Shown here: positions 417 to 12,081 of the stretch, piece after piece
Position numbering within the stretch: the stretch's first letter is position 1
Layout: every line of letters begins with the position of its first letter
Source: Candidatus Iainarchaeum sp.
Lineage (GTDB): Archaea; Iainarchaeota; Iainarchaeia; Iainarchaeales; JAFCCW01
NCBI GenBank assembly: GCA_017609985.1
Contig: JAFCCW010000024.1
Coordinates: forward strand, 1-12,081
Direction: 5' to 3'
Length of the DNA: 12,081 bases
Program-made: the position numbers and the translations under genes
The notes under the pieces: model-generated
What the model saw: only the letters and a program-made list of their open reading frames with translations
Databases searched by the model: none
Told to the model about the DNA's origin: nothing

Positions 417-1151
417 CTATTTCTTTTGCGCAACAACAATTATTCCGATGCCAAAAGGCAGTGGTAGAAAGTCAAGCAACCATGACTCAAAATCCATTAG
501 CTTTACGAGCAGACTGTTCACAAGCTGGCTTGTTTCTTTCAGGTCTGATTCTTCCCTGCCTTCTTTCACCAGTTTCCCAGCAAGCCTTGCAACTGCAACA
601 GCGGGGAACAAGAGGCTTGTCCAGTATCCAGATCTAACTATCTTAAATCCTGCTTCTGAAACCATGTTCTCGATTTCTTTTTTTGTATGACGTCTTGCTC
701 CCTGAATTGCTCTATCGTGAGCAGAGTAAAGCGAGCTGAAAGCAGATTCGTTGACTAGAAAAAAGCCGTCTTTCTTTAGCACGCGATAGCATTCTCCTAT
801 TGCTTTCCTATCCTCAACATTTCTGTGATAAATTACATTAATTGCAGTAACCAAATCAAAGCTTTTGTCCTTGAACGGCAGACTGTCAATTGAAGCTTTT
901 TTCACAGCAAGCTTTCTTTTCCTGCAGAAGCCAAGCGCTGTATCAGAAAAATCTATGCCCTCTGCATTTCCCAATCCACCAAGTTCTTTCAACAGAATTC
1001 CTGTTCCGCAGCCTGCGTCAAGAATTCTTAAATCTTTTCTGCTTGCCAATCCAGCTTTTCCAAGAAACTTAAAAATCTTTTTTCTAAGGGAAACATTCCA
1101 CCAGTAGGTTTCTTCTGTTTGAAAAAGTTTAGCGTATTCTTTTTCTTCCAA
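417..1151 (-). CDS. Class I SAM-dependent methyltransferase (Methyltransf_11-like), glycan-cluster associated
   Basis: Motif I ILDAGCGTG, GIDFS, LPFKDKSFDLV and ECYRVLKKDG. Start re-called to TTG at 1151 (MEEKEYAKLFQTEETYWW), 4 nt after the aminotransferase stop and preceded by AGGAAGTGA. The ORF-track extension to 1355 overlaps the upstream gene and looks non-coding. Confidence 0.9.
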   Translation of the reverse strand: MEEKEYAKLFQTEETYWWNVSLRKKIFKFLGKAGLASRKDLRILDAGCGTGILLKELGGLGNAEGIDFSDTALGFCRKRKLAVKKASIDSLPFKDKSFDLVTAINVIYHRNVEDRKAIGECYRVLKKDGFFLVNESAFSSLYSAHDRAIQGARRHTKKEIENMVSEAGFKIVRSGYWTSLLFPAVAVARLAGKLVKEGREESDLKETSQLVNSLLVKLMDFESWLLDFLPLPFGIGIIVVAQKK

Positions 1152-1155
1152 GCTT

Positions 1156-2247
1156 TCACTTCCTGAAACGATTGATTGCCTGCACAACTTCACTGATTTC
1201 TTCTTCAGTGTGTTGCGGGCACAAAGGAATTGAGAGAACTTCTTTGACTGCTTTTTCTGTTTCAAGCAAGCTCTCACCACCATATTCTGAGAAAGCTTTC
1301 TGCTGATGAACAGCAATTGGATAATGAATAATTGAAGGAATTTTCTTTTCTTCAAGGAACTTTTTTAGGGCATCTCTCTCCCTGCATCTGACAACATACA
1401 TGTGGTAAACATGTTTTCCATATTTTCCAAAAGGCTTTGCTGCAATACATTTATTCTCAATTCCTGACTCATAAATTCCAGCAAGCTCTATTCTCTTTTC
1501 ATTCCATTTGTCAAGATGCTCTAGCTTTACTCTCAGCAAGGAAGCCTGCACTTCATCAAGCCTTGAATTCAATCCAGTTACTTCGTTCTCATATCTGTTC
1601 TTTTGACCCATATTTCTCATTTTTTCAAGCACTTCTGCCTTGTTCTTGTCACTGGTTACAATCATTCCTCCGTCACCAGCTGCTCCAAGATTTTTTGTGG
1701 GATAAAAAGAAAAACAACCATAGTCTCCAATTGAACCTGCTTTCTTTCCTTTAAACTCTGCTCCGTGGGCTTGACAGGCGTCCTCTATGACTGTGAGAGA
1801 ATGCTTTTCTGCAATCTCTTTAATCCCATTCATGTCCGCCATCTGACCATAAAGATGCACTGGAATTATTGCCTTTGTTTTCTCCCCGACAAGTTTTTTT
1901 ACTTCTTCACAGTTAATCAAAAAACTATCTTCTTCAATGTCTGCAAAAACTGGTTTAGCTCCTGCGAGAACAACTGCAAGAGCTGTCGGAGTTGCAGTGA
2001 ATGAAGGCAGGATAACCTCGTCTCCTTGTTCAATTTTCTCTGCCATCAGGCATAACTGAAGAGCCTCTGTTCCGTTTGCTGTCCCAATTCCGTAACCTGC
2101 TCCACAGTAATCTGAGAATTCTTCTTCAAATTTTTTTCCCTCTTCTCCAAGAACATAGTGTCCTGTTTCAAAAACTTTTGAAACACGTTTTTCTGCTTCT
2201 TTTTTTATTTCCGCCCATTGCCTTTCAAGATTAACAAAATCAACCAT
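1156..2247 (-). CDS. DegT/DnrJ/EryC1/StrS-family PLP-dependent NDP-sugar aminotransferase (FdtB/WbpE-like)
   Basis: NGTEAL, IIPVHLYGQMADM, IEDACQAHGA, SFYPTKNLGAAGDGG (PLP lysine), GLNSRLDEVQA, HVYHMYVVR and IHYPIAVHQQ. Start re-called to ATG 2247 (MVDFVNL), preceded by GGTGA. Confidence 0.95.
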   Translation of the reverse strand: MVDFVNLERQWAEIKKEAEKRVSKVFETGHYVLGEEGKKFEEEFSDYCGAGYGIGTANGTEALQLCLMAEKIEQGDEVILPSFTATPTALAVVLAGAKPVFADIEEDSFLINCEEVKKLVGEKTKAIIPVHLYGQMADMNGIKEIAEKHSLTVIEDACQAHGAEFKGKKAGSIGDYGCFSFYPTKNLGAAGDGGMIVTSDKNKAEVLEKMRNMGQKNRYENEVTGLNSRLDEVQASLLRVKLEHLDKWNEKRIELAGIYESGIENKCIAAKPFGKYGKHVYHMYVVRCRERDALKKFLEEKKIPSIIHYPIAVHQQKAFSEYGGESLLETEKAVKEVLSIPLCPQHTEEEISEVVQAINRFRK

Positions 2248-2251
2248 GTCC

Positions 2252-3139
2252 TCACCAGTAATGCTCTTTGTTTTTTTCAAAAAATTCAACAGTCTTTCTT
2301 AATCCTTCTTCCAAAGGTGTTTTCGGTTTCCAGCCAAGGCTCTCTCTGATAAGGGTGATGTCTGAACAATAGCTTCCGATGTCAATTCTCCTGCTTTCAT
2401 CAGGGAAAGGAACAAGTTCTACTTTTCCCTGCCCTGCTGCTTTGACTGCTTCTTCTGCAAACTCTTTGATTGTGACACCGTTTTCTGTTCCAAGATTGAA
2501 TGCGCTCCATTTCTTGATTTTTTCTGCTGCAAGCAAAAAAGCCTCAACCACGTCATCCACATAATTAAAGTCTCGCATCTGCTGACCGTCACCAAACACA
2601 TTTATTGTTTCTCCATCCATCGCAAGCCTTATGAACAATGCAAGAAAAATCGGGTGGTCGCGATTCATTATCTGCCTTGGTCCGAAAGTGTTTACCACGC
2701 GGAGAGAGCATGTTTTTAGCCCATAAACTTCGCTGTAAAGCCGGTGATATTCTTCTCCTAATAGTTTGTGAATTCCATAAAAGTCAGGAGGGTGCATTGG
2801 GTGACTTTCGCTGACCGGCAGGCTTTCTGCCCTTCCATACTGTCCCCGCGAGCCGGCATAAACAATCTTTCCGTCAAAGCCTGTTTTTCTGCACGCTTCA
2901 AGAAGTGCGATATGACCTTTTGCATTTATTTCCAAATCCTGCAATGGCTCTTTCATGGAATCCAGATGCATTGATTTGCCGGCAATATTGAAAATAAAAT
3001 CATTGAACCCTGTTTTGCTGATTTTTCCGTCAACAACAGCCACGCTTGCTCCGAGTCCGACGAGCCTGTGCACAATATTGCTTCCGATAAATCCTGCTCC
3101 ACCGGTCACAACGCATTTTTTTCCAGAAAACTCACTCAT
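2252..3139 (-). CDS. NAD-dependent NDP-sugar epimerase/dehydratase (extended SDR), apparently with an internal in-frame deletion
   Basis: VTGGAGFIGS, FNIAG, catalytic YGIHK (YxxxK), LRVVNTFGPRQ, FGDGQQMRDFNYVDD and LGWKPKTPLEEGL. Start re-called to ATG 3139 (MSEFSGKK), with AGGTGA 7 nt upstream. Confidence 0.92.
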   Translation of the reverse strand: MSEFSGKKCVVTGGAGFIGSNIVHRLVGLGASVAVVDGKISKTGFNDFIFNIAGKSMHLDSMKEPLQDLEINAKGHIALLEACRKTGFDGKIVYAGSRGQYGRAESLPVSESHPMHPPDFYGIHKLLGEEYHRLYSEVYGLKTCSLRVVNTFGPRQIMNRDHPIFLALFIRLAMDGETINVFGDGQQMRDFNYVDDVVEAFLLAAEKIKKWSAFNLGTENGVTIKEFAEEAVKAAGQGKVELVPFPDESRRIDIGSYCSDITLIRESLGWKPKTPLEEGLRKTVEFFEKNKEHYW

Positions 3140-3166
3140 CTGCCATTCACCTGCTTGCCTTTGCAT

Positions 3167-4804
3167 TCAAGCACAAAGTTCAAGCACAAAGCCTGTTTCA
3201 AACCCCTTGTCAGTAAATGTTTTAAGCAGTGAACAGTTTTTTATTACATCGTTCCAGAGAATCGGATTTCTTCTTTCAGGAAAATTCAGAAAGAGAACGG
3301 TTCCCCCATCGTCCAGATGTTCCCGCTCTGTGCTGTCGCTTAAGTCGTAGAAATTGTCCGAGCCAAGATAGAACGGGACATCAACATCAACCGCAAAGTA
3401 AGGAGGAGGCAAATTGTTTTCTTCAGCAAAATCAACCATGTCCATTATTGTCTTATTGTAGTCCGGCGATTTTGCATAGAAGAAATGCTCTTCAACCATG
3501 AAAAAGTTGAACGGAATGCTCACTCCAATAAGCACAAGCAGACCAATTCTTTTACGTTTCTCACTCTTTGAGAACATGAACACGGCAAAGCCTGCTGTTC
3601 CAACAAGGGCTGTGAAAGCAAGGGAATACAGGGACACTGCAAAAACAGGGCCTGAAGAACCAGTATACCACACATTCGGGTTTAGCAGGACAAGCCCTGC
3701 ATCAAAGAATTCCAAGCTGAACGGCTGAACCGTAAAACTGTACATGTTAAGAAAAACAATCAGTGCAGTGAAAACAGCGGTGATGACCGCAAGCTTTCTC
3801 CAGTTGCTTTTGATTAATTCCCTGCAATTCATAAGTGCCTTTGCTGAAAGAATTCCCATAGCCGGAATTAATATCATTGCATATCTCTCAAGCTGTCCGT
3901 GCGAATTAACAAGAATCAATAGGGCAAGCCCTGTTCCAAGCCAGGAGAAAAAAATCCACTCGTCTTTTCTCTCTCGTCTGAAGAAAGCCGCCAGGGGAAG
4001 AAAAAAAAGCAGGGGAGTTCCGTACTGCATTATCCTGTAAAGATACTTGAACAGTGCCTTGCCGACAGTCAGGAGCTTGTCGCCCCCTCCGCCTACTCCG
4101 GTGGCACCCCATTCAAGCGTGAACAAAAACTTGTCCCAGATTCCAAAAACAAAAGCATAAATTGGAAACAGAGCAATCAGTGCAAAACCTGTTAGTGTAA
4201 ATCCAGCAAAGCATTTCGCCTGCTTTTTGTTAATCCTCCCTGTTGCAATAAGAAAAACAAGAATTATCGGAAGCGCTATCAGAGCAGTGTATTTTGTCCA
4301 GAGCGCCAGCCCAAAAACAAGCCCTGCGCCAAAAAGATATTTTTTTCTTCCATTCAGAACGAACAAGTAATACAAATAAATCGATGCAGTCAGGAGCATT
4401 GTAAGCAGACTGCCATCAAGCTCTGCTGAGAGTGACGCGTGAATATGGTAAAAGCTTAAGCCTGTTATTGCAACCGCCAGAAAACCAACTTCCCGTCCGT
4501 AAACCTTTTTTGCAAAAAGGAAGACAAGCAAAAGAGTTATCATTCCGTAAAAAAGGGGAATCACCCTTATCGGAAAATCAACTCCAAACAATTCGAAAAA
4601 ATCCGAGAAAAATATGTAAATATATTCATTTACAAACCTGCCCGGCGGGTGACCATAGACTTCGGGATAAATTCCCTGTCTCAGACCATCAGCTCTTGTC
4701 GCATTCAATGGTTCGTCATCAAAAAGCAGGAGATTCAGCCCGAAAGAGGAAACAACAAGTATTATTGCAAAAAGCAAAAAAAGTTTTTTTTGAAAAATTA
4801 TCAT
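3167..4804 (-). CDS. GT-C fold integral membrane glycosyltransferase (ArnT / PMT_2, GT83/GT39-like)
   Basis: More than 10 hydrophobic segments. Acidic DDE right after TM1, followed by HPP, an R-V-I-P-L-F-Y-G helix, LALWTKYTA, ERYAMILIP and a small soluble C-terminal domain. Start is ATG 4804 or GTG 4810. Confidence 0.88.
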   Translation of the reverse strand: MIIFQKKLFLLFAIILVVSSFGLNLLLFDDEPLNATRADGLRQGIYPEVYGHPPGRFVNEYIYIFFSDFFELFGVDFPIRVIPLFYGMITLLLVFLFAKKVYGREVGFLAVAITGLSFYHIHASLSAELDGSLLTMLLTASIYLYYLFVLNGRKKYLFGAGLVFGLALWTKYTALIALPIILVFLIATGRINKKQAKCFAGFTLTGFALIALFPIYAFVFGIWDKFLFTLEWGATGVGGGGDKLLTVGKALFKYLYRIMQYGTPLLFFLPLAAFFRRERKDEWIFFSWLGTGLALLILVNSHGQLERYAMILIPAMGILSAKALMNCRELIKSNWRKLAVITAVFTALIVFLNMYSFTVQPFSLEFFDAGLVLLNPNVWYTGSSGPVFAVSLYSLAFTALVGTAGFAVFMFSKSEKRKRIGLLVLIGVSIPFNFFMVEEHFFYAKSPDYNKTIMDMVDFAEENNLPPPYFAVDVDVPFYLGSDNFYDLSDSTEREHLDDGGTVLFLNFPERRNPILWNDVIKNCSLLKTFTDKGFETGFVLELCA

Positions 4805-4810
4805 GCCCAC

Positions 4811-4933
4811 CTTTACCGGTTTTTAGTATTCCAATTTTCTATAAAAATGTTTAAAAACAGACTTATGTCTTACTTTAATGCTGTTACTGCTTCAGCTAGT
4901 TTACTTATTTGTATTTGGCGGTCTGGTGTTTGA
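4811..4933. promoter_or_regulatory. Divergent promoter region with TATA-like boxes
   Basis: 123-nt gap between divergent operons. TATAAAAA at 4840-4847 reads TTTTTATA on the minus strand, about 36 nt before ATG 4804. TTTAAAAA lies at 4850-4857 and an SD-like GGTG at 4925-4928. Confidence 0.55.
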
Positions 4934-5656
4934 ATGAATAAAATTAAGGAAATAAGCCTGATAATTCCCTGTTACAACGATGAAAAAGTTGTTCCAAAAA
5001 CTTTTTCTGCAGTAAAGAACGTTCTGAACAGCATGGGCAAAGAATATGAAATAATATTTGTTGATGATGGTTCAAAGGACAAAACTCTTGAAGTGCTGAA
5101 AAACTTTGAAAAAAAAGACAAAACAGTCCATGTTCTGGAACACAAGAAAAACAAAGGCAGGGGGCAGGCTGTTCAAACAGGGGTTGCAAAGGCTGGCGGG
5201 CGATACGCAGGCTTTATTGACTCTGACCTTGACATTAATCCGAAATATCTTTCAGGACTTTACAATCTTCTTTCATCTGGAAATGACATGGCAATCGGAA
5301 GGCGAGTGCATGTTTTGGAACTTCCCACTCTTCACCGCGTTTTATTAAGCAAGGGATATCATTCTCTGGTTCGCTTGATGCTTGGAATAAAGTTTGATAC
5401 TGAATGCGGCATCAAGATGTTTGACAGAAAAAAAATTCTGCCGGTTCTTAAACAGACAAAAAACAAGCGCTGGTTTTGGAGCACAGAAATTGTTACTCTT
5501 GCCCATTACTCTGGCCTTAAGATTGCAGAGCTTGATGTCCTAAGGGAAACAAATGAGGAAACAGAATCAAGCGTTGACTTGTTAAGTGACATAAAAGAAT
5601 ATGCCCGTGAACTCTTTCGTTTCAGAAAAGAGTTAAGGCAGAAAGGTGTTATCTGA
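4934..5656 (+). CDS. GT2 glycosyltransferase, dolichyl/polyprenyl-phosphate sugar synthase-like (Alg5/AglJ/DPM1-type)
   Basis: IIPCYND, FVDDGSKD, NKGRGQAV, FIDSD (DxD), DTECGIKMF (cf. Alg5-type DTQCGFK) and RWFWSTE. 240 aa, soluble with an amphipathic segment. GGTG 5 nt upstream. Confidence 0.9.
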   Translation: MNKIKEISLIIPCYNDEKVVPKTFSAVKNVLNSMGKEYEIIFVDDGSKDKTLEVLKNFEKKDKTVHVLEHKKNKGRGQAVQTGVAKAGGRYAGFIDSDLDINPKYLSGLYNLLSSGNDMAIGRRVHVLELPTLHRVLLSKGYHSLVRLMLGIKFDTECGIKMFDRKKILPVLKQTKNKRWFWSTEIVTLAHYSGLKIAELDVLRETNEETESSVDLLSDIKEYARELFRFRKELRQKGVI

Positions 5657-6603
5657 TGATTTCTTCAAAGAAAAAAAATTCCAAGAGTTCCGCTTCTTCT
5701 GCTTCTTCAACTATCTCTGCAATAATTCCTGTTTTCAACAACGAAGCCACAATCAAAGAATGCATTTTATCTCTTCAAAAACAATCCATTCCATTCAAGG
5801 AAATAATTGTTGTTGATGACGGAAGCAAGGACAACACAGTTTCTATCTCGAAAAAGCTCGGGGCAAAAGTTTTCCAAATCAAGCCAGTGGGCAGGAGCGG
5901 TGCAAGAAATTTTGGAGCAAAAAAAGCAAAGAGTGAAATAATTGCCTTCATTGAATCTGACTCAGTTTATTCAAGCAACTGGGTAGGAGAGGTTTATAAA
6001 AAATTCAGCAAGGGTGCAAGAGCAGTCATTGACAGACGCGCTGTTCTGAATCCTGAAACATTTATTGCAAAAATGAATGATGCAATATTCACTGCTCGTT
6101 ACAAAAATTATTCTCCAATGAATGCCTGGGCTTTCCAAAGAAAGCTTTTTCTTGACCTTAACGGCTTTGATGAATCACTTGATCACGGTGAAGATGTAGA
6201 GCTTGGAAACAGGTTGAAAAAGAGGGGAATCCAGATTGTTCTGGCAGACCAGGCTTTTCAGTTTCATGCAGGCGAACCAAAGTCTCTTGAAGAGGGAATG
6301 CAGAGAAGTTTTTCTTTTGGAAAAAATATGATTTCTTATTACAATAAATATCCTGAAAAATTTCCAAAAGCAAAGATTGCTTTTTTTTCATTTCTTCCCT
6401 TCTCTCTGCTTTTTTACCCATTGTTTGTTCTGATGATTGCTTTTGCTTATGCAAGAGTTTTTTTCAGGTTTTTGCCAAGCAATATCGACATTAAATATGT
6501 TGCTGTTTATCCTTTCTATGTGATTTTAACAGAATTCGTTTTCACGCTTGGCTTTTGGAAAGCTCGTGTCTTTGGAAAACAAAAACAGAGGGAATCAAAA
6601 TGA
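5656..6603 (+). CDS. GT2 glycosyltransferase with C-terminal membrane helices
   Basis: IIPVFNNE, VVDDGSKD, GRSGARNFG, FIESD at the DxD position, GFDESLDHGEDVEL and 2-3 hydrophobic C-terminal segments. TGATG coupling with the upstream gene, and AGGTG upstream. Confidence 0.92.
   Translation: MISSKKKNSKSSASSASSTISAIIPVFNNEATIKECILSLQKQSIPFKEIIVVDDGSKDNTVSISKKLGAKVFQIKPVGRSGARNFGAKKAKSEIIAFIESDSVYSSNWVGEVYKKFSKGARAVIDRRAVLNPETFIAKMNDAIFTARYKNYSPMNAWAFQRKLFLDLNGFDESLDHGEDVELGNRLKKRGIQIVLADQAFQFHAGEPKSLEEGMQRSFSFGKNMISYYNKYPEKFPKAKIAFFSFLPFSLLFYPLFVLMIAFAYARVFFRFLPSNIDIKYVAVYPFYVILTEFVFTLGFWKARVFGKQKQRESK
5692..5709 (+). repeat. 9-nt tandem duplication GCTTCTTC(T/A) x2 encoding ASS-ASS in a Ser/Lys-rich N-terminal extension
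   Basis: GCTTCTTCT GCTTCTTCA read directly from the sequence. Confidence 0.5.
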
Positions 6604-7787
6604 AGCTGTGCAGAATAATTGATGATTTTCCAACCGGAGACCAGATTCTTGGGGATCTCGGACCAAATTATTATCATTACGCAAAGGGAACAACTGCTGC
6701 TGGAATCGAAGAACACATCATTTGCCAGCGCAAAAAAGGCCAGCCAAAAAAAGAAGAAATTGAAGGCTTTACTGTCTGGAGAGTTGCTCCTGCAGACACA
6801 CCTCACCCAAGGCGGGACATGCTTTTTGGAGAATTTGCAAAAAAATCGCTTGAAAAAGTTCTTGAACTCAAACCGGATATCGTGCACGGGCACAATTCAA
6901 TACACTATGCAATTGCCAGAAACAAAAAAAAGCTGGAAGAAAAAGGAATAAAACTTCTCACGCATCTTCACATTCATGTTGACATGTTCAGGAGAGCAGA
7001 GCATTTTCCTCTCTTTGAAAACCCTTCTTTTGCCTTGCGGGAGCGTGCACTTGACCTGACTTATTTTTTGCAGTTTATGCCCTGCATTAAAAATGCTGAC
7101 CGAATAATTGCCTGTGACAAGTCAGTTAAGAAAAGCACTTTGAACTATGTCTCTGATATTCCAATTGATGTTGTTTACAACGGTGTTTCGTTTGCAAAAT
7201 TCAGGAAAACAAAATCGGAAATAAAAAAAGAGCTTGGTGCGGAAAAACTTTTGCTTAACATCTGCAGACCGGTTCCATGGAAGGGACTGCAGTATCTGCT
7301 CAGGGCAATGCCGGCGATTACCCGCGAGTTCTCGGGTACAAAACTGTTACTGCTTGGAGTTGAAAGGCCAGAGTATAAGGTCTATCTTGATTGGCTGAAG
7401 GCAATAGCAAAAAAGCACGGTGTTAAGAATGCTGAGTTTGGAGGCCGCATTCCCTACTTTGACTTGCCAAAATACTACTCTGCTGCAGACTGCTTTGTTG
7501 CCCCCAGCTTTCCAGACCCAAGCCCTAAAACAGTTTATGAAGCACAGGCGTGCGGTTGTCCTGTTGCAGGAGTCGGGGGGGAGAAAAGTGGCATTCAGGA
7601 AATTTTTGGAAAAGAGTCTGGTTTGCTGTTCAAGCCAAGAAATGTTACTGATTTGGCTGAAAAAGTTTCTTATATTTTGAAGAATTCGTCAAAATTTCAC
7701 GGTGGAAGAAATGCAATAAAACAAAGAGCCACCTGGCAGAAATGTGTCAGTGACATGATAGAAGTTTATGATAAAATTTTGAAATAA
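6600..7787 (+). CDS. GT4 (GT-B fold) glycosyltransferase, divergent
   Basis: KPDIVHGHN, VVYNGV, CRPVPWKG, YYSAADCFVAPS and EAQACGCPV. Start re-called to ATG 6600 (ATGA overlap with the upstream stop). Confidence 0.92.
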   Translation: MKLCRIIDDFPTGDQILGDLGPNYYHYAKGTTAAGIEEHIICQRKKGQPKKEEIEGFTVWRVAPADTPHPRRDMLFGEFAKKSLEKVLELKPDIVHGHNSIHYAIARNKKKLEEKGIKLLTHLHIHVDMFRRAEHFPLFENPSFALRERALDLTYFLQFMPCIKNADRIIACDKSVKKSTLNYVSDIPIDVVYNGVSFAKFRKTKSEIKKELGAEKLLLNICRPVPWKGLQYLLRAMPAITREFSGTKLLLLGVERPEYKVYLDWLKAIAKKHGVKNAEFGGRIPYFDLPKYYSAADCFVAPSFPDPSPKTVYEAQACGCPVAGVGGEKSGIQEIFGKESGLLFKPRNVTDLAEKVSYILKNSSKFHGGRNAIKQRATWQKCVSDMIEVYDKILK

Positions 7788-7792
7788 ATTTT

Positions 7793-8566
7793 TTAAAACT
7801 GCCCGCCGCGATTTTTGTAAAAGCTTACTTCCTTATTCCATTCGGATGCTAGTGCGGTTCTCCAATTAGCTGATTTATTGCAGTATTTGCATATTTTAAC
7901 TAATCCTTTCTGGTGCTTTTTCCTGAAGTCCTGCATTTCCCTGCTGTTCCATGCTTCCATTATGCTTTGTTTGTTAACATCTCCAACCACCTGCTGTGCA
8001 TCCCAGAAAAAACAGCAGGGCACAACTTTTCCATCCCAAGTAATAGCCATCTTGCTCCAAAGGTCAAAGCAGTGGGTTTCATCAAAAACTTCTCCGCCTT
8101 CACCCCATTGGTGAACACCGCGTGTTTTTCCAACTTCCTGCAGGACATAAAGCGCATTTTCTTTATCTGCTTTTTTAGCGAATTCCTTCACCAGCGGGTT
8201 TTTTTTGAAATAATTTATTATTGTTAAGCTGGGTGTGGTTTTAAGATTTTTTAAGAAGGTGGCATTGGTTGATAAAACAGCTTTTATTCCCACGTCTTTT
8301 ACATAGTCAATACATTTGTTCACATCTTTGTGCATCAGGCTTTCACCCATAAAATGCAGGGAAATCATATCAACATTTCCAACACACTGGTCTACAACTT
8401 TTTTAAATAACTTAAATGACATATAACCTCTTGCTCTGGTTTGGTTTTTGTTAGGGCAAAACGAGCACGAGAGATTGCAATGGTTTGTGAGTTCAAGTTT
8501 AACATGCTTTGGAAAATCCGCGATGGGCAATTTCAGCTTGTAAAAAAGCGCTGATTTGATATTCAA
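7793..8566 (-). CDS. Radical SAM protein with C-terminal SPASM/twitch domain, unusually short
   Basis: ELTNHCNLSCSFCP (CX3CX2C at 8456-8479), FMGESLMH (GGEP-like) and LSTNATFL. C-terminus is CFDLWSKMAITWDGKVVPCC...VGDVNKQSIMEAWNS...ICKYC. Start is TTG 8566 (AGGTG 6 nt upstream) or GTG 8575. Confidence 0.9.
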   Translation of the reverse strand: MNIKSALFYKLKLPIADFPKHVKLELTNHCNLSCSFCPNKNQTRARGYMSFKLFKKVVDQCVGNVDMISLHFMGESLMHKDVNKCIDYVKDVGIKAVLSTNATFLKNLKTTPSLTIINYFKKNPLVKEFAKKADKENALYVLQEVGKTRGVHQWGEGGEVFDETHCFDLWSKMAITWDGKVVPCCFFWDAQQVVGDVNKQSIMEAWNSREMQDFRKKHQKGLVKICKYCNKSANWRTALASEWNKEVSFYKNRGGQF

Positions 8567-8637
8567 TGCAAACACCTTTTTGGCTCAGTATTTTTCCGGC
8601 TAATTATTTTTTTCATGTTAAAGTAATATTTACAAAC

Positions 8638-8645
8638 TTTTATAT
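8638..8645 (+). promoter_or_regulatory. Archaeal TATA-box-like element in the second divergent intergenic region
   Basis: ACAAAC-TTTTATAT about 37 nt upstream of ATG 8682. The same bases read TATAAAA on the minus strand, facing the radical SAM gene. Confidence 0.5.
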
Positions 8646-8681
8646 TGACATCGGAAAAGATATTACCAAAGGGTAGATGCC

Positions 8682-9056
8682 ATGAAAACCAGTAAAATTA
8701 AGGGCTTAGTAATCCGAAAAGCCAATATTTTCGAAATAAGCAAGATTGTTTCCATTCAAAAAACCCACTTTATTTATTCCAAGTTCTGGCTTTGGCTTTT
8801 AAGGAGTTTTTTAACAGGGCATGTTTTTGTTGCATTAAAAAATAACAATCTAGCGGGTTTTATCATCTGGAATAACAAAACTCTCTGCTCTATTGTGGTT
8901 TCCGAGGCTTTTAGGGGGCAGGGCATTGGAAAAGAGCTGGTGAATGAGACCATGCCCTGCACTGATATTCAGATAGTTGAATGCAGTTTGCACAATAAAA
9001 AGTTTTATGAAAAATCAGGATTTAAAGTGGAAAAACTTAAAATGGTGAAACGATAA
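8682..9056 (+). CDS. GNAT-family N-acetyltransferase (small, RimI-like fold)
   Basis: VIRKA at the N-terminus, LAGFI, acetyl-CoA motif A VVSEAFRGQGIGKELV and motif B KFYEKSGF. Confidence 0.9.
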   Translation: MKTSKIKGLVIRKANIFEISKIVSIQKTHFIYSKFWLWLLRSFLTGHVFVALKNNNLAGFIIWNNKTLCSIVVSEAFRGQGIGKELVNETMPCTDIQIVECSLHNKKFYEKSGFKVEKLKMVKR

Positions 9057-9105
9057 TTTCTCCTTACCTGAAAACTGAAAAAAATTATTTTTGGCGTGTT
9101 TTGTG

Positions 9106-10155
9106 ATGAATATTTTGTTTTTTGGCGGCTATAATCAGGATTATGCAAGAAACAAGGTCATAAAGCACGGGTTGGAAAAGAATGGCGTCAGAGTGGAAGA
9201 ATGTCATTCCCAGAAAGGATTTTTGTTAAGATTTTTTACCCTGCTGTTTAGGGGGTTTTTCAAGAGCTTTGACGTGCTCTGGGTTCCATATCCTGGTCAC
9301 ACTGATATTTTGTGCGGAAAAATTCTCTGTGTCCTGAAAAGGAAACCGCTTGTTTTTGATGTCTTTGTTTCCCGCTGGGATTCAGAGGTTGAATACGGCA
9401 ATATTTTGGGAAAAAAATCTTTCAAGGCAAAGTTTTTGTGGTGGAGCGACAAAATAGCATGTGAACTTGCAGACCTTGTTTTTTTGGATACTCCCCAGCA
9501 CATTGATTTCTTTGTGAAAGAATTCGGGATTTTGAGAAAAAAACTTGAATGGGTTTTTATCGGAGCCAACGAAAAAGTATTCTATCCCCAAAAGCAGTCT
9601 AAGAAAGGGAAAAAATTCAATGCTCTCTACTATGGTCTTGCAGCTCCCCTTCACGGGCTGGAGCATATAATATCTGCCGCGCAGTTACTGAAAGATGACC
9701 GAGAAATAAAAGTTACTCTGGTTGGTGGAAACTGGCGTTATCGTGATGCAATGGAAAAGCAGGCTTCTGAACAGGTGTTTGATTTTAAGGGGCTGTTGCC
9801 GCTTGAAAAAATTCCTGCTGAAATAGCAAAGGCAGATGTTGTTTTCGGGCTTTTTGGTGACACTCCCAAAGCACAGCGTGTAATACCCAACAAGGTTTTT
9901 GAAGCGATTGCCATGAAAAAGCCTGTTATAACCATGCGCTCTTCAGCAGTAAGCATGGTTTTTGAACACAAGAAAAATGTTTTTCTTGTAGATGCGGCTT
10001 CGCCCCGGCAAATAGCAAAAGCAGTGCTTGAGTTGAAAAAGAACAGGCGTCTCAGGGAAAAAATTGCAGAGACTGGGCACAATCTATTTGAAGAAAGTTT
10101 TTCTGAAGCAGTTATCGGGAAAAAGATTCTCAGAGTTCTGCAAAAACTAGTGTGA
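9106..10155 (+). CDS. GT4 (GT-B fold) glycosyltransferase
   Basis: KPLVFD, ADLVFLDT, YYGLAAPLHGLE, ADVVFGLFG and RVIPNKVFEAIAMKKPVIT (PNK-x-x-E subtype). Start re-called to ATG 9106 (MNILFFGGY). Confidence 0.92.
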   Translation: MNILFFGGYNQDYARNKVIKHGLEKNGVRVEECHSQKGFLLRFFTLLFRGFFKSFDVLWVPYPGHTDILCGKILCVLKRKPLVFDVFVSRWDSEVEYGNILGKKSFKAKFLWWSDKIACELADLVFLDTPQHIDFFVKEFGILRKKLEWVFIGANEKVFYPQKQSKKGKKFNALYYGLAAPLHGLEHIISAAQLLKDDREIKVTLVGGNWRYRDAMEKQASEQVFDFKGLLPLEKIPAEIAKADVVFGLFGDTPKAQRVIPNKVFEAIAMKKPVITMRSSAVSMVFEHKKNVFLVDAASPRQIAKAVLELKKNRRLREKIAETGHNLFEESFSEAVIGKKILRVLQKLV

Positions 10156-10182
10156 GCTTGGTGCGTTTATGAAAGATAAATA

Positions 10183-10189
10183 TTTAAAA
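10183..10189 (+). promoter_or_regulatory. Candidate internal TATA box for a leaderless transcript of the B12-radical SAM gene
   Basis: GATAAATA-TTTAAAA ending 24 nt before ATG 10214, which is typical archaeal leaderless spacing. Confidence 0.5.
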
Positions 10190-10213
10190 GAAGAAGCAAA
10201 AATCATTTGTCCT

Positions 10214-11701
10214 ATGCGGGTTCTTTTAGTCAATGCGCCTTCAGAGCGTGATGGAAAATTTTTCAAAAGAGCAGGGGTAAGATGGCCTGCGCCGGGTCAC
10301 AAGTATAAAGATTCAAAAGACCCGGGGCGTTATGTAGCATTCCCTTTTTTTCTTGCCTATACTGCGGCTCTTCTAAAGGAAAGTGGGAATAGTGTTTACG
10401 CGATTGATGCTGTTGCCCTTCAAATGAATGAAACTGATTTTTATAAAGCAGTAAAGAAGCGCTCTCCTGAGTTAACTGTGATTGAAACAGCCACTCCCAC
10501 AATCTCTCTTGATTTAAAATACGCAGAGTGGATTAAGAAAAACACAAATTCAAAAATAATACTGGTGGGACCGCATGCCAGTGTTTTTCCCAAGGAAATG
10601 CTCAGACACAAGTTTATTGACTATGTTGCCATAGGTGAGTATGAGAAAACAGTTGAAGAGTTAGTGGAAAAGCTTAGCAAATCCGAGCAGGTAAACAAGG
10701 TTAAAGGTCTTGCTTTCAAAAAGAGCGGAAAACCAGTGGTGAACAAACGCCGTGAAATTATTCAGCCACTGGACCAGCTTCCTTTCCCTGCAAGAAATCT
10801 GTTTCCGATTGACAGCAGGCCTGATATAGGGCTTTATTGGGACGGCATCTGCACCCATTACCCTGCAATAAAGGTTGCGACAAGCCGTGGCTGCCCGTTT
10901 AACTGCAATTACTGCCTCTGGACACAGGTTATGTATCCTGGAAGAAAATTCAGGGTTTTTTCAGCAAAAAGAGTTGCTGATGAAATTGAGCACGTAATAA
11001 AAAAGTACGGAGCAAAAGAGATTTATTTTGATGACGACACATTCACCGGAAACAGAGAGCACGCTCTTGGAATTTGCAGGGAACTTAAAAAGAGAAAGAT
11101 TAAAATTCCGTGGAGTGCAATGTGTGATGCAATAGTCACAACCGAGGAAATGATAAGGGAAATGAGTGAAGCCGGCTGCAAGTCAATAATGTTCGGGCTT
11201 GAAAGTGCTGACCCGAAAGTGCTTAAGAAAGTAGGCAAGCCCATTGACCTTGAGTACATCAAGAAGGTTTTAGACTGGTGCAATAAATACAAAATTGTAA
11301 CCAGAATAACCAATTGCTATGGCGTAACCGGTGATTCAGAGGAAAGCATAAGGAAAACATTTGAGTTTTCTTCCTCGCTCCCAGTGCACTCGGTGCAGGT
11401 GAGTGCCGCAATCCCGTATCCTGGAACCCGCTTTTACAATGAAGTTAAAAAAGAAGGAAGTCTGACAGAAAAAGACTGGGACAATTACGACGGCAGGCAG
11501 CTTGTTTCCTATCCTCAACTGTCCGGAGAAAAAATTTCACAGCTTGCAAAAGAGCTTTCAGAAAAATACCACCGCAGGAAACGGAGAAATCCCCGGTGGC
11601 TGGTGAATGCGGCAAAAAGCGTCTGGAGAGAATTCGGTTTAAAGGGTCTGTTAAAGGTTTCAGCCAGAAACTTGAAGCGCATTGCCAAGGGCGAATTCTA
11701 G
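10214..11701 (+). CDS. Cobalamin-binding (class B) radical SAM protein, HpnJ-like
   Basis: N-terminal B12-binding domain (FPFFLAYTAALL, ILVGPHAS, DYVAIGEYE), LDQLPFPAR, TSRGCPFNCNYCLWTQ (CX3CX2C at 10892-10915), EIYFDDDTFT, GLESAD and PYPGT. RAGVRW, CLWxQ and FDDDTFT resemble my recollection of HpnJ-family motifs. Alternative start at ATG 10169. Confidence 0.9.
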   Translation: MRVLLVNAPSERDGKFFKRAGVRWPAPGHKYKDSKDPGRYVAFPFFLAYTAALLKESGNSVYAIDAVALQMNETDFYKAVKKRSPELTVIETATPTISLDLKYAEWIKKNTNSKIILVGPHASVFPKEMLRHKFIDYVAIGEYEKTVEELVEKLSKSEQVNKVKGLAFKKSGKPVVNKRREIIQPLDQLPFPARNLFPIDSRPDIGLYWDGICTHYPAIKVATSRGCPFNCNYCLWTQVMYPGRKFRVFSAKRVADEIEHVIKKYGAKEIYFDDDTFTGNREHALGICRELKKRKIKIPWSAMCDAIVTTEEMIREMSEAGCKSIMFGLESADPKVLKKVGKPIDLEYIKKVLDWCNKYKIVTRITNCYGVTGDSEESIRKTFEFSSSLPVHSVQVSAAIPYPGTRFYNEVKKEGSLTEKDWDNYDGRQLVSYPQLSGEKISQLAKELSEKYHRRKRRNPRWLVNAAKSVWREFGLKGLLKVSARNLKRIAKGEF

Positions 11702-11717
11702 GTTTATTTAACTTAAC

Positions 11718-12080
11718 TTATTTTTCTTTCAAATCCTTCAAACTGCATTTGAACAAGACCTGTCTGCGTTTTCTTGCCATTGTCTGTTCTTCAATTGTAA
11801 AGTATTTGCTTACTATTTTTTTCCAGTTAGCAAAATCCCAAAATTCTCTGAAATGGTTAGTTCCAAAAAAATGATTGGTTCCATAAACCTCTGTAGCGTG
11901 AACAAACCAGAAATTGTTTCCCAAGTTATGGCCGCTTAGCCATCTAACCAGAAAAAGAGGAAAATTTAAAAGGTTCCATATTTTCCATTCTGCTGTGGGT
12001 AGGATGAGTATTACGACGCCTTTTTTCCTTAATACTCTGTGGATTTCTTCTGCAAATTCTTTTTTTTTTGAAACATGTTC
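11718..12080 (-). CDS. Class I SAM-dependent methyltransferase, C-terminal part only (starts beyond the right edge)
   Basis: The frame is open from 12080: EHVSKKKEFAEEIHRVLRKKGVVILILPTAEWKIWNLLNFPLFLVRWLSGHNLGNNFWFVHATEVY... EHV-x6-EEIHRVLRKKG is a typical Methyltransf_11 motif II/III region. The ORF track shows only the last 68 codons. Confidence 0.8.
   Translation of the reverse strand, partial: EHVSKKKEFAEEIHRVLRKKGVVILILPTAEWKIWNLLNFPLFLVRWLSGHNLGNNFWFVHATEVYGTNHFFGTNHFREFWDFANWKKIVSKYFTIEEQTMARKRRQVLFKCSLKDLKEK
11851..11883 (-). repeat. 18-nt-period imperfect tandem duplication encoding GTNHF-F-GTNHF
   Basis: Plus strand AAATGGTTAGTTCCA (11851-11865) vs AAATGATTGGTTCCA (11869-11883), 13/15 identical. 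Confidence 0.7.
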
Positions 12081-12081
12081 A

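Follow-up and report, generated by a model that had tools for sequence, protein, structure and literature searches.

Here we analyse a stretch of 12,081 bases from Candidatus Iainarchaeum sp., referred to below as the window, which makes up the entire contig C20 of an assembly of 1,164,119 b in 37 contigs (completeness 86.6%). The results support the view that this locus is a glycan-building island, in which an ordinary kit (a sugar aminotransferase, a short-chain dehydrogenase/reductase (SDR), a GNAT N-acetyltransferase, methyltransferases, four cytoplasmic-type glycosyltransferases and one membrane glycosyltransferase of the GT-C type) stands beside two radical S-adenosylmethionine (SAM) enzymes of different kinds. 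One is a compact twitch-type enzyme that resembles BtrN, and the other carries an N-terminal B12-type Rossmann domain (the B12-type enzyme in what follows) and resembles HpnJ and AprD4. Taking the explanation as a whole, we think it probable that the window is one of two cell-surface glycan islands in this small-genome DPANN archaeon and that its two radical SAM enzymes remodel sugars, the twitch enzyme by oxidation or epimerisation and the B12-type enzyme by a rearrangement that involves no methylation.

Both radical SAM families keep close to sugar genes in other genomes, which is the linkage that the first-pass annotation had named as a test. For the B12-type family this was measured with a labelled reference set on the 99 loci, out of 152, that had at least 6 kb of flank (53 were dropped), and a sugar gene was present in 89 of them and within 3 kb of the enzyme in 83. 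The same measure taken at 1116 positions of the archaeon's own genome (one genome only, C20 excluded) found a sugar gene at 24% of positions and within 3 kb at 12% of them (136/1116), so that the clustering of these genes exceeds chance. Pfam searches on 145 open reading frames (ORFs) from eight loci placed the B12-type enzymes among GT2, GT4, SDR, NTP_transferase, Wzx and PMT_2 genes, and certain arrangements recur, namely two SDR genes followed by the radical SAM gene, the radical SAM gene followed by a WcaI-like GT4, and radical SAM genes in tandem. An SDR gene lay no more than 3 kb away from the B12-type enzyme in 43 of the 99 loci, being directly adjacent on the same strand in 17, and comparison of the window proteins with 80 B12-type loci found relatives of the SDR in 41, GT2a-like proteins in 27, GT2b-like proteins in 24, SPASM-type enzymes in 22, GT4a-like proteins in 15 and DegT in 5 (names as in Table 1). 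At the best 20 twitch loci of the order, 17 were flanked within 1.5 kb by SDR, GT2, GT4, UGDH, NeuB or GFO genes. The two radical SAM families also co-localise: a SPASM-type enzyme occurs in 29 of the 99 B12-type loci, of which 59 contain additional B12-type paralogs, and among the strong twitch matches in genomes G001-G060, counted by hand, 21 of 34 have a B12-type match within 20 kb on the same contig. Across the order, B12-type matches were found in 48 of 61 genomes, with up to 12 per genome, and the twitch family in 88 of 151.

Some details of this distribution are recorded here for their own sake. B12-type genes are strongly expanded, with up to 12 matches in genomes of about 1 Mb (G021 and G056), and are often clustered on one contig, as at 8.6-61 kb of G021:C2 and at 143-158 kb of G043:C46. 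Twitch-family genes adjoin genes for NeuB-type nonulosonic acid synthases in L105, L106 and L125 (G144, G086 and G019), and in L125 a gene for a CMP-sugar cytidylyltransferase also lies beside the twitch gene.

In the twitch enzyme the cluster ligands are C33/C37/C40 and C169/C187(C188)/C229/C232. The CX3CX2C motif and the four auxiliary cysteines are invariant in its family, the latter standing in register with those of BtrN, and the window copy retains the GES and TN motifs. Because only four auxiliary cysteines are present the enzyme is of the twitch type and does not have a full SPASM domain, which narrows the earlier label SPASM/twitch to its second half. Its alignment to the BtrN structure 4m7t runs in one stretch (E 6.7e-14, residues 25-234 against chain residues 28-257), and BtrN is likewise the top Foldseek match of its structural model (E 7.7e-10, template modelling (TM) scores 0.57/0.60, identity about 20%). 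When the family profile was searched against the PDB the best solved relatives were BtrN (E 6e-32), BlsE (7.5e-17) and DesII (1.6e-11), with GDGT-MAS also among them, and three of these four (BtrN, BlsE and DesII) act on sugars. Database relatives of the window enzyme have 300-365 aa and are at most 32% identical to it over most of its length.

The B12-type enzyme comes nearest to HpnJ among the NCBIfam models (TIGR03471; 263.8 bits, or 263.6 in the genome search, against a cut-off of 577.6), which leads the next-best model (145.6 bits) by about 120 bits, and all nine relatives tested behave alike, with 217-285 bits. Its AlphaFold2 model has a mean predicted local distance difference test (pLDDT) score of 92.5, and the top Foldseek match is AprD4 (6fd2; E 3e-23, TM 0.75/0.81 over 493 columns, identity about 20%), with which it shares a Rossmann-type N-domain, a radical SAM barrel and C-terminal helices; TsrM, MgmA, OxsB, CysS and TokK follow in the ranking. 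AprD4 was also the best match of a profile search against the PDB (E 1.4e-37), and the AprD4 family model (NF033070) gave 84 bits against a cut-off of 500. Relatives in protein collections form a coherent family of about 500 aa, whose identity with the window enzyme ranges from 71% down to about 38%, and this uncharacterised family is spread over many phyla, with hosts among DPANN archaea, Patescibacteria, Verrucomicrobia, Methylococcales and others. In one metagenomic relative (P0097, 746 aa) an N-terminal NTP_transferase domain (PF00483, residues 2-116) is fused to the B12-domain radical SAM part. A metagenome search for nearer relatives, made for synteny, reached 48% identity at best, and among the relatives at 56-71% identity only L023 (58%) was examined as a locus. 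Relatives at 40-71% identity are found in other DPANN lineages and in bacteria, whereas the best in the sampled genomes of the archaeon's own order stands at 38%, a hint that glycan cassettes have moved laterally.

The genome contains three proteins with B12-binding domains over the cut-off, all of them radical SAM enzymes located in glycan islands, and the search for CobS, CbiB, FecCD and a PduO-type adenosyltransferase found none of these in the 86.6% of the genome that is represented. CobS was found in 0/151 genomes of the order and a FecCD-type permease passed the cut-off in 2/151, and despite this most genomes of the order encode proteins with B12-binding domains. AprD4, the nearest structure, has a B12-type domain that does not bind cobalamin according to a review (PMC12931638, section 6), which places HpnJ among the "other or unknown transformations". 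In view of the missing matches to cobalamin genes and of the likeness to AprD4 and HpnJ, we favour a non-methylating chemistry for the B12-type enzyme, probably cobalamin-independent and of the rearrangement or dehydration type. The first-pass annotation had proposed a surface glycan or glycolipid with an amino sugar that was C-methylated, ring-contracted or oxidised; of this proposal the glycan-building island is supported, and C-methylation, for want of cobalamin genes, now looks the least likely of the reactions.

From these resemblances we infer a set of reactions, substrates, an order of steps and a product glycan. A nucleotide sugar whose synthesis is encoded elsewhere in the genome would be oxidised, aminated by the DegT enzyme and N-acetylated by the GNAT. 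Sugars would be assembled on dolichyl phosphate, with GT2a as the synthase-like enzyme and GT2b, GT4a and GT4b extending the chain, and the GT-C would transfer the product to an acceptor on the outer side of the membrane. The BtrN-like twitch enzyme would abstract a hydrogen from a carbinol carbon of the sugar, leading to oxidation (or epimerisation), and the HpnJ/AprD4-like enzyme would bring about a rearrangement, without methylation and probably without cobalamin, whose possible outcomes are dehydration of a diol to give a deoxy sugar or ring contraction to give a cyclitol. O- or N-methylation would complete the unit. By analogy with the characterised relatives, this suggests the presence of unusual sugars on the cell surface.

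Several observations weigh against this interpretation. The twitch copy of the window fits its own family profile in two pieces only (positions 10-128 and 187-312, leaving out those from about 129 to 186), its structural model is poor at residues 106-167 (mean pLDDT 67), falling below 50 at residues 106-125 and 140-167, no close ortholog was found above the 32% identity already mentioned, and the gene stands alone on the strand opposite to its neighbours. In the SDR, too, a segment of about 30 residues is missing between strands 2 and 4 of the Rossmann fold, one that its relative at L092:2487-3455 possesses. These features could point to partial decay of the island, in which case the twitch enzyme and the shortened SDR would be inactive remnants and at most one radical SAM step would still work; for the twitch gene in particular, the poor model between residues 106 and 167 is the reason why it could be a decayed copy. 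Both frames are nevertheless open, all seven cluster cysteines are retained together with the GES and TN motifs, BtrN naturally has the same size and aligns contiguously, and the family has other short forms: among its 149 best representatives, 6 have 285 aa or fewer, and 2 of these match in a single stretch. Our own first reading of the gene as an internally deleted, dead copy was revised after the contiguous BtrN alignment, the top fold match to BtrN and these other short forms. Partial decay of the island seems rather unlikely to us.

The B12-type enzyme raises a separate difficulty, since its N-terminal domain passes the Pfam threshold for B12-binding (PF02310, 43.2 against 32.1 bits), and it might accordingly be read as a cobalamin-dependent class B radical SAM C-methyltransferase similar to GenK or GenD1, which would make a C-branched sugar with cobalamin drawn from the host. 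Several methylase models match it at E values of 1e-18 to 1e-42, all far below their cut-offs, and TsrM, MgmA, CysS and TokK come after AprD4 in the fold search. A symbiont could take up host cobalamin by another route, which would make C-methylation possible, and the genome is only 86.6% complete. On the other side, neither the best family (HpnJ) nor the best structure (AprD4) is a methylase, cobalamin assembly and canonical import genes were not found in the genome, and CobS was found in none of the 151 genomes searched in the order even though some of them carry up to 12 B12-type enzymes. We hold C-methylation to be rather improbable and retain the rearrangement or dehydration chemistry described above.

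Two further points against the proposed pathway concern what surrounds the radical SAM enzymes. The first-pass annotation had suggested testing for co-occurrence with the same glycosyltransferase, DegT and GT-C clades, and conservation of these specific clades was not borne out: a DegT gene was present within 3 kb at only 2 of the 99 B12-type loci, and none of the 20 twitch loci is flanked by one. The linkage holds for sugar genes generally and is not specific to the clades of DegT, GNAT and GT-C. Within the window there is no flippase, no initiating transferase and no AglB; GtrA (PF04138) was not found in the genome, whose AglB candidate is located on contig C23, within the other island. Every curated model is missed as well; the proposal as a whole we still judge the probable account. 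It is most improbable that the radical SAM enzymes act instead on a peptide (as SPASM-type maturases) or on archaeal lipid chains (as enzymes of the kind that modify glycerol dialkyl glycerol tetraethers (GDGT) or of the ladderane type), their place in a glycan island being incidental, as the weak NCBIfam matches of the twitch enzyme to peptide and cofactor maturases, the presence of GDGT-MAS among the PDB matches of its family and the 136.6 bits of the B12-type enzyme with a 'lipid biosynthesis B12-binding/radical SAM protein' model are set against a sugar-gene association kept across many phyla, a B12-type relative fused to a nucleotidyltransferase, best solved relatives that act on sugars, and an ORF list, confined to frames of 80 aa or more, that has no entry in the 106-bp gap next to the twitch gene.

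Comparison with characterised systems gives BtrN and HpnJ, both named in the first-pass annotation, as being among the nearest characterised enzymes, and adds AprD4 to them. BtrN, the twitch 2-deoxy-scyllo-inosamine dehydrogenase of butirosin synthesis, shares with the window enzyme its size (about 250-260 aa), the cysteine pattern, the contiguous alignment and the first place among fold matches. Its partner aminotransferase BtrS, which we take to be a DegT-family member, has a parallel in the DegT-family aminotransferase found in the same island as the twitch gene. The differences are that identity is only about 20%, that the setting is an archaeal glycan island as opposed to an aminoglycoside cluster, and that the DegT gene of the window lies 5.5 kb from the twitch gene, as part of a different operon, and does not recur beside it at related loci (0 of 20). 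AprD4, the radical SAM 1,2-diol dehydratase that acts on paromamine in apramycin synthesis together with the reductase AprD3 (presumably of the SDR type), is nearest to the B12-type enzyme by fold and profile and has the same N-terminal B12-type Rossmann domain, and SDR genes are frequent neighbours of the B12-type family; it differs by the low score of the window enzyme on the AprD4 family model, by an identity of about 20% and because the window protein scores above the Pfam cut-off for B12-binding.

For HpnJ, an enzyme of hopanoid side-chain synthesis that would contract the ring of glucosaminyl-bacteriohopanetetrol to a cyclitol ether, and for the calditol synthase Cds of Sulfolobus, the mechanisms are only proposed (PMC13459092, sections 2.6 and 3.2). 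HpnJ provides the best family model and its substrate is a lipid-linked sugar, and in the window a glycosyltransferase gene stands immediately upstream of the B12-type gene; the score remains less than half the cut-off, however, and a paralog on contig C23 is nearer to HpnJ (467.9 bits). A match to the HpnJ model, at the level of the genome, was likewise obtained in the S. acidocaldarius control. The hopanoid context (the glycosyltransferase hpnI, the deacetylase hpnK and squalene-hopene cyclase) is absent, and no deacetylase or cyclase family appeared among the Pfam and NCBIfam matches of the window.

The carrier genes invite comparison with the three-component systems ArnC/ArnT, GtrB/GtrC and DPMS/PMT. 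Over its residues 4 to 150-180, GT2a matches the Pyrococcus DPMS (5mlz), GtrB (5ekp) and ArnC (9hwj/9bhc) among PDB entries, and models for ArnC, PpgS and a Dol-P-hexose transferase match it near full length, all below their cut-offs; the top-scoring PDB match is a chondroitin synthase. The GT2a gene is divergent from that of the PMT_2-type GT-C, and this facing arrangement together with the sequence resemblance fits a transfer by way of a dolichyl-phosphate sugar to an acceptor outside. After the GT-C come the SDR and DegT genes, as ArnA-type and ArnB-type enzymes would. These systems differ from the window in that the GtrA-type flippase was not found in the genome (ArnE/F-type proteins were not searched for), that neither a formyltransferase nor a deformylase is present, and that all matches fall under the curated cut-offs.

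All the genes listed by the first-pass annotation, that is the GT-C, two GT2, two GT4-type glycosyltransferases, SDR, DegT, GNAT, methyltransferases and two radical SAM enzymes, were recovered where it had placed them as ORFs and through Pfam (Table 1). Gene calls were taken from the ORF list, and the window proteins were searched with Pfam and NCBIfam profiles. None of the 13 proteins reached a curated NCBIfam (equivalog) cut-off, and therefore no characterised pathway was matched. Of the two methyltransferases claimed, the first is identified by Methyltransf_11, and the second, of which only the C-terminal 120 aa lie in the window and which has no Pfam match of its own, by a 66-bit match to L023:4437-5048, a protein that carries Methyltransf_11.

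Table 1. Features of the 12,081-base window, with strand and the main profile evidence for each.
Feature	Coordinates	Strand	Evidence and remarks
Partial ORF, N-terminal 113 aa	1..339	-	Hydrophobic N-terminal segment, then Cys-rich stretch (CNNENICCDKDTDC); no Pfam/NCBIfam match
Class I SAM methyltransferase, last gene of minus-strand operon	417..1355	-	Methyltransf_11, 69.6 bits
DegT/DnrJ/EryC1-family pyridoxal phosphate-dependent sugar aminotransferase	1156..2289	-	PF01041, 374.9 bits, profile positions 3-359 of 360
Extended SDR, epimerase/dehydratase fold	2252..3166	-	Pfam Epimerase, 151.8 bits, two stretches
GT-C membrane glycosyltransferase (PMT_2/ArnT-like), first gene of minus-strand operon	3167..4810	-	PF13231, 56.2 bits
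GT2a, soluble, 240 aa, like polyprenyl-phosphate sugar synthases	4934..5656	+	PF00535, 111 bits
GT2b, hydrophobic C-terminal region	5656..6603	+	PF00535, 106 bits
GT4a, both domains	6555..7787	+	Glycos_transf_1, 92 bits; Glyco_transf_4, 62.7 bits
Compact twitch-type radical SAM, BtrN-like, 260 aa	7793..8575	-	SPASM, 66.8 bits; Radical_SAM, 28.8 bits
Small GNAT N-acetyltransferase, first gene of right-hand plus-strand operon	8682..9056	+	Acetyltransf_7, 48.1 bits
GT4b, GT4-type (WcaI-like)	9091..10155	+	Glycos_transf_1, 59.7 bits, C-terminal half only
Radical SAM with N-terminal B12-type Rossmann domain, HpnJ/AprD4-like	10169..11701	+	Radical_SAM, 78.8 bits; B12-binding, 43.2 bits
Second class I methyltransferase, C-terminal 120 aa	11718..12080	-	N-terminus beyond contig end

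The genes are arranged as a minus-strand operon from 4810 to 417 (GT-C, SDR, DegT, methyltransferase), a plus-strand operon from 4934 to 7787 (GT2a, GT2b, GT4a) divergent from the GT-C, and a second plus-strand operon from 8682 to 11701 (GNAT, the WcaI-like GT4b, the B12-domain radical SAM enzyme), with the twitch gene by itself on the minus strand, flanked by the two plus-strand operons. The partial ORF at the left end may or may not belong to the island. Some starts lie inside the ORFs of Table 1: that of the methyltransferase 417..1355 is probably near 1170, because the first 66 or so codons of its ORF overlap DegT, and the probable starts of DegT, GT4a and GT4b are Met15 at 2247, Met16 at 6600 (where the stop of GT2b overlaps the likely ATG of GT4a as ATGA) and 9106, respectively. 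The database gene call for the B12-type enzyme, of 495 aa, puts its start at Met16 (10214). In the genome search the GT-C gave 61.9 bits for PMT_2 (cut-off 26.1); it had no NCBIfam match and nothing meaningful among PDB sequences. GT4b scored 44.9 bits with the WcaI subfamily model, below its cut-off, and has an ortholog in L023 (328 bits). The best NCBIfam models for DegT, all below cut-off, were WecE-type (221 bits, cut-off 375), ArnB (215) and PseC (209).

The SDR shows the motifs GSRGQYG and YGIHK and is 44% identical to its relative at L092:2487-3455, in which Asn takes the place of the YxxxK Tyr found in the window protein. The window SDR is without the D-E acid-base pair at the site typical of 4,6-dehydratases. 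Because the SDR is shortened and this pair is absent, the keto sugar for DegT may come from this unusual SDR or from the BtrN-like enzyme, by analogy with BtrN and BtrS.

The assembly contains an archaeal 16S rRNA gene (1398 bits), the G+C content of C20 (0.40) is typical of the genome, and a scan of the window found no tRNA. The second, larger glycan island lies at G000:C23:1-45000 (locus L122 covers 18000-37999). Its operon runs in the order B12-type radical SAM, NTP_transferase, NUDIX, SDR, SDR, methyltransferase, GT2 and full-length twitch radical SAM, and its B12-type paralog is the one that stands far nearer to HpnJ than the window copy does. Towards its right edge are Alg13/Alg14-like genes, a WecA-type gene and the only STT3/AglB candidate of the genome (43934-44977). 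A junction of C20 with this island was considered and rejected, as C23 ends in a truncated B12-type gene and the ends of C20 are the methyltransferase and the small ORF.

A search whose coverage left out most subscription journals turned up no paper connecting radical SAM enzymes with glycan clusters of DPANN or other archaea, and we know of no archaeal surface-glycan pathway with a characterised radical SAM step. What the window adds is the BtrN-sized enzyme and the argument from cobalamin. The many "B12-type" enzymes in genomes without cobalamin genes bear on how far this domain predicts the cofactor. If the two enzymes do remodel sugar rings, host-dependent, ultra-small archaea would have envelope sugars that escape standard glycomics, the two families would represent new anaerobic sugar chemistry, and the aminoglycoside-type radical enzymes would gain an evolutionary context in primary envelope metabolism.

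More tentatively, and with doubt outweighing confidence, one may imagine that the surface glycans of DPANN archaea, and likewise those of Patescibacteria and Omnitrophota, acquire cyclitol, deoxygenated or otherwise rearranged sugars by means of cobalamin-independent HpnJ/AprD4-like enzymes and BtrN-like enzymes acting on carrier- or nucleotide-linked sugars. Were this true, the radical sugar chemistry of aminoglycoside antibiotics and of hopanoid or calditol head groups would be a widespread envelope chemistry of anaerobic ultra-small microbes, and the presence of up to 12 paralogs in a 1-Mb genome would be a means of varying the cell surface.

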